NCBI GenBank assembly: GCA_020137815.1 | Contig: CM035353.1 | Span: 1,860,001-1,924,000 of the forward strand | From: Hormiphora californensis | Lineage: Eukaryota > Animalia > Ctenophora | Length of the DNA: 64,000 nt | Reading direction: 5' to 3' | Shown: piece after piece, positions 34,301 to 55,300 of the stretch | Position numbering within the stretch: the first letter of the stretch is position 1 | Layout: every line of letters begins with the position of its first letter | The notes under the pieces: generated by a model | Database searches by the model: none | What the model saw: only the letters and a program-made list of their open reading frames with translations | What the model was told of the DNA's origin: nothing | Program-made: the position numbers and the translations under genes

Positions 34301-37300
34301 AATGGTAAAAATTACTCCTGGTAACTTCTCCATGGTATACTCATCTGGAGTTCATCATTCTATGGGGACTGCAGGAGATATAACAGAGCTGCTGGTAGCT
34401 CATAATATCATATCTGGGGCTAGTTAGTTGCAATAAAAAACATCATATTGTGACACTAATACACACAGGTGTGTTACCTGTAGTCTGGTCCCTCATATAC
34501 AACCCTAATACACGTACCTGTAGTCTGGTCCCTCATATACAACCCTCCTGTTAGTGCCCTCCAGATCCATCTCAATGAGACTAGACTGGGTTCCCAAGGG
34601 TATCAGCATAATACAACTTGTTGGAAGCGGTGTTTATTGCCAGTCCAACTGGTGATGAGGGTAGTGTGTCCAAGACCTGCGTGGAATATTGGGAGAAAAA
34701 CAGGTAGGGATTTAAAGGGAATTATCATGAATTAGAACTGATCAGAATTAAATCCCAGATTGGTTCCTGATTTCATGAATATTGTCATATTGTAATACGC
34801 AGTTATACAGAAACTAGAGGAGGTGAGTGTAATTATTGCATTTATGTACTATAATAATGTGCACACTATTAACTGTAATGTTCCAGATCTAGTTTGTATA
34901 CCATTGGTGAGGTGCCATCCAGTGCCGAACTGTGCACCGATGCAGTCTGTTGTTGGGATGCCTTGATGGTGAAGAAGAGTGTTTGTCGTTGGGGGTAAAC
35001 AGCGATATCCAGCACAGTCTCACCCTCCGCACCTGGGAAGAGAGAGAGATCTGTTATATTCTCCGGGTAAAAATGCAGTTTTCACCTGGACATACATGGT
35101 GATTTACCTGCATTAGCGCAGCAAATCACCTAGTGAAAGTAGGTTTCTCTGCGCGAATTTCTTATGGGGGGATGTGTACAATGTACAATGTATATCTGCC
35201 ATCTGGGGGAGGGGGCGAATTTCTTATCGCATGGTACTGGTTGACCGTTAAATTTGATTGGCAATGAAACTTTTGCTAGCTAGTTTATTATTGGCAATGA
35301 AACCAAGAGAGATTGTTTCTCAGAACTCCATTTGAACGAGCACCCTCAAGATATCAACAATGGCCCAAGCATTCAATGTGGTACAGCACGTCGAGCTCCT
35401 AATGTGGTCTTCCAAGAATTCAGAACTTTGCCAAACAATTGTTTTAGGGGCCCCTTTGATATCGGATCTATATTTGGTATCTTATAGTGGAGGTTTCCAC
35501 ATGTGTGAACTATGACCGCATCAATTGTTATCAATTGTCTGACTGTGGTCTGGTTCTCAGTTTGAGGGAGCCAGGTACCCTATTGTTCTCGTCACGGGGT
35601 TTGTTGAGGGGTGGAATTGTCTCGTCATGGTAGAATGGAACTACCAGTTACCACGGCCCCTCAATGAGGGGCCTCACGGAACACACGGTGATCAATGGGT
35701 CGATACTGTAATCTGGGCACCCGATGTGAGGACGCAACTACTGTTTATACGAACGTTGGTACGTACCACAAGCTGGTCACTTCTTTGAAGCAAAAGGGTA
35801 TACTTTTGTCCTTTAATGGACCTAATAGGTCACCTATAGCAGAAAGCAGATTTAAACAATTCTTATTCTTCCCTATAGAACTCGAGGAGCTTTTGTTCAC
35901 TCTTACTTCTTAGTTCACAGTATACGGCTAGTATTGAGTAGTACCTTGAGCCTTAGACCATTGTCCCGTACCTTCTTTTGTCATCCTAGAAGTAGACAAA
36001 GCAAAGCTAGGACAGAGGACGTATAATTGTTTGAGTTGTCACAAAAAAACTCATTTCCAATTGAAACGCGTTGTTTTGTAGGCTGGTATAAAAGACAGGG
36101 GTGCAGGTGGTCTTTAGTTTCTAGGTTCTAACACTATACTGAGTAGAGCTCCGTTAAACGTTGTTTCACTTTGCACTATATATATATATATTCGTTTCTC
36201 TGATCCCTCCTTCTCTCCTTGTGTACAGTTTCCCCTCTCTTCTTGGGAAGGGGGAAGGAAACTAAACGTAGCGCGCACGATAACATGAGAGAGACAGCGC
36301 AGGAGGATAGAAGAAGGGGGGATATTATACCCTCCCTCTCTCCCAGAGTAAAAACATAATATATTTTATAGGACAGACCTAGATATTATAAGATATTATA
36401 AGACCCCCCCAGATATAGAGAGTTTGGTAAGATGTTATTGAGGGTGGTTCTAATAGCCACGGTACTGTTTCAACTCTGTAACGGTGACTGCTATATGCAG
36501 AATCCTAGAGGCTCTAACAACAGGTAAATAGTTGCATTATGAGGTTCTAACAACAGGTAAAGTTGCATTATGAGGTTCTAACAACAGGTAAAGTTGCATT
36601 ATGAGGTTCTAACAACAGGTAAAGTTGCATTATGAGGTTCTAACAACAGGTAAAGTTGCATTACGAGGCTCTAACAACAGGTAAAGTTGCATTATGAGGT
36701 TCTAACAACAGGTAAAGTTGCATTATGAGGTTCTGGCTTGATCATATCATAACACATGATAAAACCAGAAAACACATTTGATCGTATCCATTATATTGGT
36801 CTCTAAATGCAGCTTCTAACTTTACCACCCCCCCCCCCCCATAGCAACCCACTAACAACCCCCCATAGCAACCCACTAACAAACCCCTAACAACAGGCTG
36901 GATGAAGAGACTGCTGATCGGAACAACGCTGCGAGACTGTTTGATTCCCAAAATAATGATAGGGGTGGATACAATACGGGAGATTTGTGGAGCACTGCAG
37001 CGGAGGAAGCACAGCAACAATACTCTATGGTAATTATCAGGAACCGACCGAAACAAGTAAACAACCAATCAGAACTCGTTATTTAGGTCACGTGACTGGT
37101 TATCAGCCAATCAGGGACCAGTATTTCCTGATTCGGTCGTGGTAATTATTATGTAGATCACTTGCCAATATAATTGTCAAAATAAGAACCACATGAATTA
37201 CTTATTTAAGTGGAAAATTATGACTTATTTTGGTACCATTGCCACCCATTCTCCCGGTGTCCCAAATAGAGGAATACGGGAATACCATTCCCGTCGGCCA

Positions 37301-52300: not shown

Positions 52301-55300
52301 CATATTTTACATTACACTGTAGGCGTAGCATTAATCTCGTTTTTAAGTTAGTTTCTCGTCTTGAATTAACAGCGGTAGGGGAGGGGGCGTCCAGAAAAAC
52401 AATGGGCTTGAGACGGGATGGGATTTCTATTGGCGAAATGTCGTCCAACTCCGTCTAGTATTACTAGTTATATTGCTAGGTTACTACCGCCTGGGCCAAA
52501 AGTAGTAGTAACCTAGCAAACCTCAACTAACCCACCACCCATTAATTGAGATGTGTCCCACCTGCACACACTAACCTGCGTATATGGTCTTTGTATGAAG
52601 TCCCCTGGTAGTTGCAACTCTGATCAAGTTCCGGGTGGCCCAGTACACATTCCCAGCCACATTGTCCACCGTGATGGCCCAGACAGCCGTCTCAGCCTTG
52701 AGAACGGTCATAGACAGTCCATCCAGGGAGAGGGATACCAAGCCCAGGGCACTATCCCGGTACAGAACCCGCTCTGAAGAATATTAGTTTAGGTACTATA
52801 ACAGCTTGATTGTTAAACCCTTTTTGTCTTTAAAACGATTTGAGAGAGTCGAGTAAGGCATATATTTAGGTGCCGGCAGGCACCTCCGACCCGAAGAAAA
52901 CAGCAAAAAACGAAAAAAAGAAAAAAAAATTTTGCCCCTGCACAAAAACCCAAAAATGCCGGCCCTATTAAGAACAAAGAAAGGTCTTTTTTTTGGGGGG
53001 GGGGGGGGGGGGGGGGGCAAAAAACATGTCAACGATTGTGGCCACACCGTTTGAGATATCGACTTGAAATTTTGTAGGCATGTTCTTGTAGTATTCCTTT
53101 GTGTCATGACGTTGGCGGATTTTTGAATTTTTAATTAATTAATTAATTATAGGTAATTAAAAACGGTGCAAGGGCACCGTGCCCCTGCACATTGCGTGTT
53201 TTGTCCCTTGCACCGCGCCCTTGCACCAAATTCTATTTTCCGTTCTGCTTAAAATATCGACTTGAAACTTTGTAGGAATGTTCTTCAATCATAAAAGATG
53301 ATGTTCGAAAAGTGGGAATAGTCAAAATTAATTAATTAGTTAGTTAGAGCCGTGCAAAAAATGGAATTTGGTGCAAGGGCAGGCAATGTGCAAGGGCAAA
53401 TGGTGCAAGGGCAGCCCTTGCACCAATTTTATGATCGAACTGTGTCCACACCGTTTAATATTTTGACACGAAACTTTCTATGCATGTTCTAGTAGCATAA
53501 CTACGAGTACTAGAAGAGCCGTATGATTAATATATCAATTAGGTAATTAATTATAGGCAAATTAATTAAAATTTGCCCCTGCACAATTTGTGCAAATTTC
53601 CCCTGAACATGTGCCCTTGCACCATTTTGTTTGCCCATGCACTAAATTATATTTTCCGTTCTGCTTAAAATATCGACTTGAAACTTTCTAGGAATGTTCT
53701 TCATGCATAAAACATATACAGTCGGACCCCGATTTAGGGCCCCCCGATTTAGTGGCACCCCGATTTAGGGACAGGATTTTTTTCCCCTGATATAGGAAAT
53801 TAACCTTATTTGACCCCGATTTAGTGGACACCCCGATTTAGTGGACAAGAGCCTTTCCCCCGAGGGTGTCCCTAAATCGGGGTCCAACTGTAATATAATC
53901 TACAGAAAGTGGGAATAGTCAAAATTAATTAATTAATTACTTAGAGATTAATTTTGGGGTGGCCCCTGCACAATTTTGGCAAATTTGATATTCAAACTTT
54001 GAGCCTTTGTGAAAGTAATGAAAATTATTTATTTCAGGTTATGATGAACAATAAGCTATAAAAACGCCCCTTTTTGTTACACAAGCCTGTGCTTGGTATC
54101 GAAGACACCTCACACTCTGTCGCCGGGCGACCTTCGCGTGCACACGCTGGCAAGGGGTAACTTCGTAACCAAAGCCTGTGCATTGTGCATAATGAAATGG
54201 ATAAATTTTCATCCAGGCGATAGAACTCGATAGAGTTCGATTGATTTACCATGACAACGGAGTTGGTTACCATACTAACCAGAGAATTCGTTGTAAAATA
54301 GTCCTTTCTTGCTATAAACTCGGCCTTTAGATAGAAAATTGATTTTATTCTACTCGCACTAATGCAAGGGCATTTCACAGTTTGGTGCCGTTATTTTTGT
54401 CTCTATTTTTAATAGGATTTTGGGATTAGACTGAAAGTATGGGATCATTTGAGAAGTAGTGAAGATTTGAAAATGTTAGCAACTTGCCGGTTCGACAAAC
54501 TAAACCCATATGATTCCAACTTCGGGTCGGACGAGGGGAAGCTTGCCTTTTGCGAACATATAATTTCTCTTTCCTAAACAAGCATCTCTCTTTTGAGTTG
54601 TTCATACTTTCTTTTTATTCTAAAAATCATGGAGCACAGAAACAGTGTCAAGCGACTAAATCTCTCTTACCATTAGTAGCATCATAAGCAATAGCAATTG
54701 AGTTCCTGATGTGGTAAACAACCAATCAGAACTCGTTATTTAGGTCACGTGACTGGTTATCAGCCAATCAGGGACCAGTATTTCCTGACACTTACCATTA
54801 GTAGCATCATAAGCAATAGCAATTGAGTTCCTTATGTGGTGCATGTTGATGGTGAACACTTTAGGTGCCGGGGTATCCAGAGTCACCCTGTATATCACAC
54901 TACTGCCCGCCACCAGGAGACTCTTGGCTGAGGCCTTACAGGTCTTGTTGTCCGCTTGGAGCATGAACAAGTCAGGGCAGGTACAACTTGATCCCTCTTC
55001 ACCCAGTATGCAGGTGTGAGAACACCCACCGTTGTTGGATTCACATGGGTCGGGCTCTAGGGGGGGGGGGGGTGTTAGTTTCAGATGGGTCCGGGCTCTA
55101 GGGGGGGGGGGGAGGGTGTTAGTTTCACATGGGTCGGGCTCTAGGGGGGATGTTAGTTTCACATGGGTCGGGCTCTATAGTCGGGACGAATCTCTCACAA
55201 AAAGAAGTGGTTGACTCACTATTTGGTGAAAAGCAAATTCCGGTTGTAACCCACCTATTTTGACCCGCTGAACACGATCCCGTCCATAGGTAAGCTCGCA

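Follow-up and report, generated by a model that had tools for sequence, protein, structure and literature searches.

Probable double nesting of a glutamate receptor gene within a DD3-3-like gene within an LRP-like gene, on alternating strands, in the ctenophore Hormiphora californensis

How are three genes to be read when each appears to lie within an intron of the next, on strands that alternate at every level? The question is raised by a 64,000-nucleotide stretch of the ctenophore Hormiphora californensis (GenBank assembly GCA_020137815.1, contig CM035353.1, positions 1,860,001 to 1,924,000 of the forward strand; hereafter the window), for which an earlier note had proposed an ionotropic glutamate receptor (iGluR) gene inside a DD3-3-like gene inside an LRP-like gene. 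The window is eukaryotic DNA of 43% G+C with a single gap, a run of 100 Ns at 3110-3209, and the closest named proteins to its products are from Pleurobrachia bachei, a ctenophore of the same family, at 86-93% identity. The proposed coordinates and alternation of strands hold: the receptor coding region (46552-49281) falls within an intron-shaped gap of the DD3-3-like gene (46288-49937), whose own coding region (36432-52226) falls within a 17.5-kb gap of the LRP-like host (35033-52575). For all three genes, "wholly inside" refers to coding regions only. Exon order, splice sites, phases and homology across both junctions are established, and we consider it very probable that the genes are nested in this way, with their own promoters and ordinary GT-AG splicing.

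The exons of the middle, DD3-3-like gene were mapped from its best homologues back onto the window. The eighteen exons of the original proposal were recovered, and all 17 introns are GT-AG; with one extra base near 41142 omitted, their phases agree and the product has 694 amino acids. A search with exon 14 (49938-50154) returned 866 matches at E≤1e-10 among 907 candidates, many of them named DD3-3. Over residues 1-677 the product shares 61% identity with Bolinopsis microptera XP_063677133.1, and in a quick tree of 28 rows it groups with three homologues (P0011, P0012 and P0015) at an SH-aLRT of 100. The exons flanking intron 13, the intron that holds the receptor, together make up a motif that runs uninterrupted in 113 of 120 homologues, and the nine best-ranked of these (P0011-P0019) have the same spacing as found here. 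We also compared contigs of four of eight listed sequencing runs, three of DNA and one of RNA (X7), with positions 45720-55100; an RNA contig joins exons 16-17-18, and thereby two of the 17 introns, with 14 of 249 letters differing. Two peculiarities of this gene may be recorded here. The acceptor of exon 9 sits in a 24-nucleotide unit present in about 23 tandem copies, and a degenerate tandem copy of exon 16 (82% over 114 nucleotides), and by eye of exon 17 too, lies at 50898-51295 on the plus strand, just upstream of the intact exons.

The outer junction joins two host exons across an intron of 17,543 nucleotides, in a gene whose median intron is 273 nucleotides and whose next-largest is 2,570. 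The phase compatibility previously put forward is there, both sites being in phase 1, but as evidence it is weak and we rejected it as proof of the junction, since a random match has a probability of 0.40; 33 of the 61 modelled host introns are in phase 1. To the protein we applied a propeller profile built from three other propeller units of the host gene. The half upstream of the intron aligned with profile positions 2-114 and the downstream half with positions 125-295; joined, they form one domain (positions 2-295) that scores 65.8 bits and carries an insert of one residue close to the join. Searches of the PDB, which are independent of this profile, placed the upstream exon on the second repeat of LDLR (best match 1IJQ, residues 79-115, E 0.003) and the downstream piece on the following repeats, those of LRP4/6. 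The P. bachei gene model P0008, to which the downstream exon (34902-35032) is 93% identical, matches LRP4/LRP6 propellers from its residue 20-22 onward. When the upstream half was joined to phase-1 exon chains, two of 22 joins gave one full-length domain, namely the genomic neighbour and an equivalent exon that belongs to another propeller 27 kb further on; joins into the units on which the profile was trained are biased in this test by self-matches. The junction donor scores above 45 of the 57 other modelled host sites and the acceptor above 54 of 58. Unspliced read-through of the upstream exon meets a stop directly after the donor, and within 35033-52575 no propeller-like exon was found (best 1.6 bits; no tblastn match at E≤1). 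Thus, the flanking exon groups complete a single propeller through strong splice sites, in agreement with the claim of one outer host gene and not two, and on this sequence evidence the host mRNA would use the junction.

The innermost gene carries the Pfam domains of an iGluR (PF01094, PF10613 and PF00060), and its closest solved structure is 4ZDM. The earlier note had called it intronless. Its coding region is indeed free of introns, but in the assembly the frame is broken by three single extra bases that the note had missed. One open reading frame (47281-49308, minus strand) encodes the ATD, the first ligand lobe and the channel segment and then meets an early stop; the remainder lies in shifted frames (frame steps -2/-3/-1/-2) after +1 breaks near 47336, 47163 and 46889. 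When the extra bases are removed, no in-frame stop is left and all domains are present: the ATD, the two-lobed ligand domain, the channel segment with its M3 gating motif, and the last helix. The second lobe and the last helix, which lie beyond the breaks, align at 76-90%. P. bachei iGluR-3 and iGluR-11 share 86% and 88% identity, respectively, with the product. In the receptor, the stretches that hold the candidate Glu and Arg match iGluR-3 exactly, and these two may be the salt-bridge residues. An Arg-Glu salt bridge gives glycine binding in ctenophore Epsilon iGluRs (PMC6307864, PMC12226733), and the former study states that every ctenophore iGluR examined is Epsilon. The cysteine-rich intracellular loop and the loop-1 cysteine pair, features described in the same source (PMC6307864), are present and aligned with P. 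bachei iGluR-3. From its resemblance to iGluR3, we predict a glycine-binding Epsilon subunit.

Are the breaks in the receptor frame real? Each of the four DNA contig pieces listed over 46889 is one base short of the matching stretch of the window and has one gap, and the one listed piece that covers both 47336 and 47163 is two bases short, with two gaps; the gap positions were deduced from piece lengths, and the counts are among the pieces listed. Substitutions in the receptor frame were synonymous in 22 of 32 listed cases (22% at random), and in 12 of the 18 beyond the first break, a count made among 40 of 540 rows in which alleles and paralogues are mixed. A host exon (near 34591) and DD3-3 exon 3 (near 41142) each carry a single extra base too. 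Because the contigs are shorter by the same number of bases, synonymous substitutions are in excess and similar extra bases occur in the host and in DD3-3, the receptor breaks are likely errors of consensus or assembly, and we infer that the receptor is intact. Counted over the coding exons of the three genes, there are at least six single extra bases (near 62910, 41142, 34591, 47336, 47163 and 46889), because of which gene sets from this assembly can be expected to hold false frameshifts.

Several points weigh against the arrangement as we read it. Contigs without the extra bases match the window at 90-97% identity and could represent other alleles or paralogues. The receptor was not seen in the single RNA run, no cDNA or RNA contig was seen across the host junction or DD3-3 intron 13, and no read or contig was seen to span the interval, the contigs covering 45720-55100 and the longest listed pieces being of about 400 nucleotides. 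No full-length orthologue of the host was found, one of the searches reaching proteins of up to 2,000 amino acids only. The P. bachei model P0008 consists of 13 unrelated residues followed by exactly the downstream host exon, and inverted-repeat DNA contains, on the host strand, a signal-peptide-like exon candidate in phase 1 (37846-37774). Finally, the gap could hide further exons, since the profile is insensitive to divergent single exons.

Could the receptor be a pseudogene or a null allele, which would leave only one working nested gene? The three breaks remove the second ligand lobe and the last helix in the assembly, and none of the 13 records of RNA run X7 lies over the receptor or the host exon, which says nothing on expression. 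Close paralogues could supply intact contigs, and a null allele is conceivable because the contigs may come from other alleles or paralogues. However, all three breaks are +1 single bases within 450 nucleotides, the same type of error is found in two other genes, listed contigs at 96-97% identity lack the extra bases, and the synonymous excess persists past the first break. Loss of function of the receptor is, in our estimate, quite unlikely.

If the receptor works, how would such a stack be transcribed? We envisage three independent transcription units, each with its own promoter, in which each outer gene would remove the inner genes by ordinary GT-AG cis-splicing. The receptor, intron-free and one of several close intron-free paralogues, would likely be the last arrival, as a duplicate or retrocopy, and placement on the opposite strand at each level may be what lets nesting persist. 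First-level passengers seen in the host are all antisense to it; being antisense in turn to DD3-3, the receptor ends up on the strand of the outer host, a parallel orientation that would be a by-product of strand alternation. Most likely, the nesting is tolerated genome packing and does not reflect a shared function of the three proteins. The earlier note had also held that the host must ignore the receptor's 3' end signals, which is logically true if both genes are expressed, but nothing special was found in the poly(A) hexamers. Within 1.26 kb past the receptor stop there is no canonical AATAAA or ATTAAA on the host strand. On that strand AATAAA occurs 15 times in the big intron (0.86 per kb, versus 0.62 per kb in the other 60 introns); consequently, the host already reads through such hexamers routinely. 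Special poly(A) avoidance was dropped as an explanation, no contrast having been found. The host would read through the receptor either when the receptor is silent or because the receptor's end signal is weak.

A bolder proposal is that the receptor has no promoter of its own and that its mRNA is cut from the outer host pre-mRNA by spliced-leader trans-splicing, so that the host promoter drives it; a choice between completing the host transcript and producing the receptor, switched by antisense DD3-3 transcription, would then sort the three genes into different cell types. Receptor and host do lie on one strand, at least 56% of full-length reads from Hormiphora carry leaders (PMC8527503), and an AG acceptor-like site is found at 49442, about 160 nucleotides before the receptor start. 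Yet this site, the only one of its kind near the start, has a score of 6.2, whereas the lower quartile of real host acceptors is 6.7; about 650 nucleotides upstream are left for a promoter of the receptor's own, and strand alternation alone predicts the parallel orientation. We therefore regard it as very unlikely. Were it true, double nesting would serve here in an operon-like way, coupling the neurotransmitter receptor of a ctenophore with a giant extracellular protein. We also considered a fusion of host and receptor by way of this acceptor-like site and rejected it, the frame after the site closing before the receptor start.

It is also highly improbable that two separate LRP-like genes flank the DD3-3-like gene and that only the nesting of the receptor in DD3-3 is real. 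Such a pair of genes would account for the lack of a transcript or full-length orthologue across the junction, for the signal-like first-exon candidate and for the start of P0008 at the same downstream exon, a start that fits a gene predictor failing at a long intron but also fits a separate gene. However, P0008 is without a signal peptide, each of the two genes would end or start with part of a propeller, the halves are exact complements, both junction splice sites are among the host's stronger ones, and completing exons were not found in the gap. A misassembly that placed the DD3-3/receptor block into the host intron is comparably improbable: the coding exons do carry one-base errors, the window has its 100-N gap, the interval has many repeats and a degenerate duplicate of a DD3-3 exon, and no spanning read was seen, but it would need two breakpoints within one intron, the interval holds no N, DNA contigs of the three runs cover 29 of the 30 bins of 45720-55100, a DNA piece (52543-52863, run X2) bridges the host donor into the intron, and the break in the P. 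bachei model falls at this exon too, as expected from a long intron there. The bin without cover in all four runs (51041-51353) overlaps the degenerate duplicate of the DD3-3 3' exons; it may be an assembly artefact or a private haplotype, and we did not use it as evidence. The difference, gap and joint tables of the DNA runs are dominated by repeats, and summed contig depth, which is no measure of copy number, is higher over the receptor than over its flanks.

What kind of gene, then, is the host that would span the whole locus? Its model, in which some exon ends are approximate, runs from 62927 to 4309 on the minus strand, both ends lying in mid-propeller. The first 31 exons encode 1,516 amino acids free of stops once one base near 34591 is omitted. 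The modules recognized are YWTD propeller/EGF units, a kringle, and lectin-like and FN2 domains, with Pfam matches on single exons to Ldl_recept_b, Kringle and fn2. At least seven YWTD propeller units, together with mid-chain modules of kringle, lectin-like, FN2 and discoidin-like type, set the domain mix apart from that of vertebrate LRPs. No LDLa motif was found in the host model or in the six frames of the window, the host N-terminus lying beyond it, and the roughly 2,870-residue model, which does not include the C-terminus, contains no membrane helix (top 19-residue hydropathy 1.34) and no NPxY. The LRP label given previously thus stands for the YWTD/EGF likeness only, and we call the gene "LRP-like" in that sense. 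As for a full-length orthologue, none of 59 candidates of 115-2,000 amino acids matched at E≤0.01, and a search among 1.84 billion representatives gave two matches, a 229-residue P. bachei fragment and an unrelated bacterial repeat protein; these negatives are weak because the host exceeds 2,000 amino acids and its exons are divergent. In the literature we found no paper on the host's domain mix.

The features of the locus are collected in Table 1, which includes a second nested gene of the host.

Table 1. Coordinates, in the window, of the three stacked genes, the exons and introns at their junctions, the receptor frame breaks and a further nested gene.
Feature	Position	Strand	Remarks
Outer host, LRP-like mosaic gene	4309..62927	-	62 modelled exons, ~2,870 aa; starts upstream of window
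Host exon upstream of big intron	52576..52773	-	phase-1 GT donor; completes second YWTD repeat of propeller
Host intron holding both inner genes	35033..52575	-	17,543 nt
Host exon downstream of big intron	34902..35032	-	strong AG acceptor, phase 1; opens third YWTD repeat
DD3-3-like gene	36432..52226	+	18 coding exons, 694 aa, 15.8 kb
DD3-3-like exons 1-6	36432-36523, 36897-37029, 41127-41238, 41398-41514, 41773-41917, 42234-42387	+	
DD3-3-like exons 7-12	42647-42760, 42888-42996, 43911-44000, 44146-44236, 45723-45816, 46008-46088	+	
DD3-3-like exons 13-18	46170-46287, 49938-50154, 50290-50451, 51414-51479, 51759-51864, 52142-52226	+	
DD3-3 intron 13, holds receptor	46288..49937	+	3,650 nt, GT-AG, phase 0
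Ctenophore iGluR	46552..49281	-	coding region intron-free; 908 aa with three extra bases omitted
Three single extra bases in receptor frame	46888..47336	-	near 47336, 47163 and 46889; likely assembly errors
MFS transporter open reading frame	21687..23423	+	intact, intron-free, 578 aa; PF00083 E 7e-45; nested antisense in host intron

The host intron that holds the MFS gene splits a kringle, positions 1-39 and 47-79 of the profile lying on the flanking host exons; the MFS/sugar-transporter-family frame itself has a short tandem repeat at its N-terminus. Other small frames lie on the plus strand. Positions 27277-27906, in host intron 26445-28798, form a 209-codon open frame with no Pfam match, likely an exon of a small secreted-domain gene, and a frame at 2042-2428 resembles it. 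Antisense in host intron 15592-17666, a short frame at about 16287-16415 has a signal-peptide-like start and a Gly-Lys-Arg site, resembles an amidated-peptide precursor and may continue through a GT donor. The start of another secreted protein is found at 63850-63990; it probably represents a further nested gene, since the host starts upstream of the window. Between the last modelled host exon and the N gap, three tRNA-Gln(CTG) genes lie on alternating strands (3497-4160), and beyond that gap exons of a discoidin (F5/8 type C)-like gene occur at 403-1170 (plus strand), with a weak Pfam match below the cut-off. Repeats abound in the introns. In many of them tandem arrays copy the adjacent splice site or exon end (43370-43920 on the plus strand; 60221-60340, 28360-28800 and others on the minus strand), and fold-back (inverted-repeat) elements, large and nearly perfect, take up the longer introns of the host and the middle gene (44278-45719, 38251-39412 and 55180-56190).

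The locus carries a warning for annotation, in that the P. bachei gene set splits the host at this very intron. Through its one-base errors, the assembly would give a near relative of PbiGluR3, a receptor studied structurally, the appearance of a truncated protein; tallies of glutamate/glycine receptors in ctenophores, on which the debate on the origin of nervous systems draws, are affected by this. The locus, where three genes alternate in strand and the host holds still more nested genes, offers a compact test case for transcriptional interference and leader trans-splicing.

Compared with its known relatives, the receptor agrees with the ctenophore Epsilon receptors iGluR3 (AEX15541.1; PDB 4ZDM) and iGluR-11 (AEX15549.1) of P. 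bachei in its domain order, in the cysteine-rich loop and in the cysteine pair of loop 1; it differs from iGluR3 and iGluR-11 by its three frame breaks in the assembly, and either paralogue could be its orthologue. The host shares tandem YWTD propeller plus EGF units with the receptors LRP4, LRP6 and LDLR but differs from them by kringle, FN2 and lectin-like modules in mid-chain and by the absence of LDLa, membrane helix and NPxY from the modelled part.

As to the architecture, about 10% nested exonic bases is normal across animals, and gene predictors often miss nesting (PMC10282587). The assertion that double nesting is rare in animals is not supported by comparison with H. californensis itself, for which 2,357 of 14,265 genes are reported as nested, in 1,654 hosts, and 484 of the nested ones as doubly so, together with a four-gene example and nested genes parallel to their host (Schultz et al. 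2021, PMC8527503). As in that set, the trio has a gene in an intron of a gene that is itself in an intron, with several nested genes per host; the published set is based on Iso-Seq, whereas the trio here rests on homology. The 17.5-kb intron may be absent from that count because the longest 0.5% of introns were dropped there. Among the papers listed in our searches none names this trio, although the supplementary nested-gene list of PMC8527503 may hold an orthologous one. The trio is thus a further case of a known kind of architecture, a class of hundreds in a ctenophore. In Drosophila only a handful of such "Russian doll" nestings are described (Assis 2016, PMC5174743). They share with this locus three levels, a bias to opposite strands (71% there) and small, intron-poor inner genes in large, intron-rich hosts, and intronless genes are over-represented among same-strand nestings in Drosophila, as with receptor and outer host here (PMC5174743). 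The locus differs from the Drosophila cases in its middle gene, which has 18 exons over 15.8 kb.

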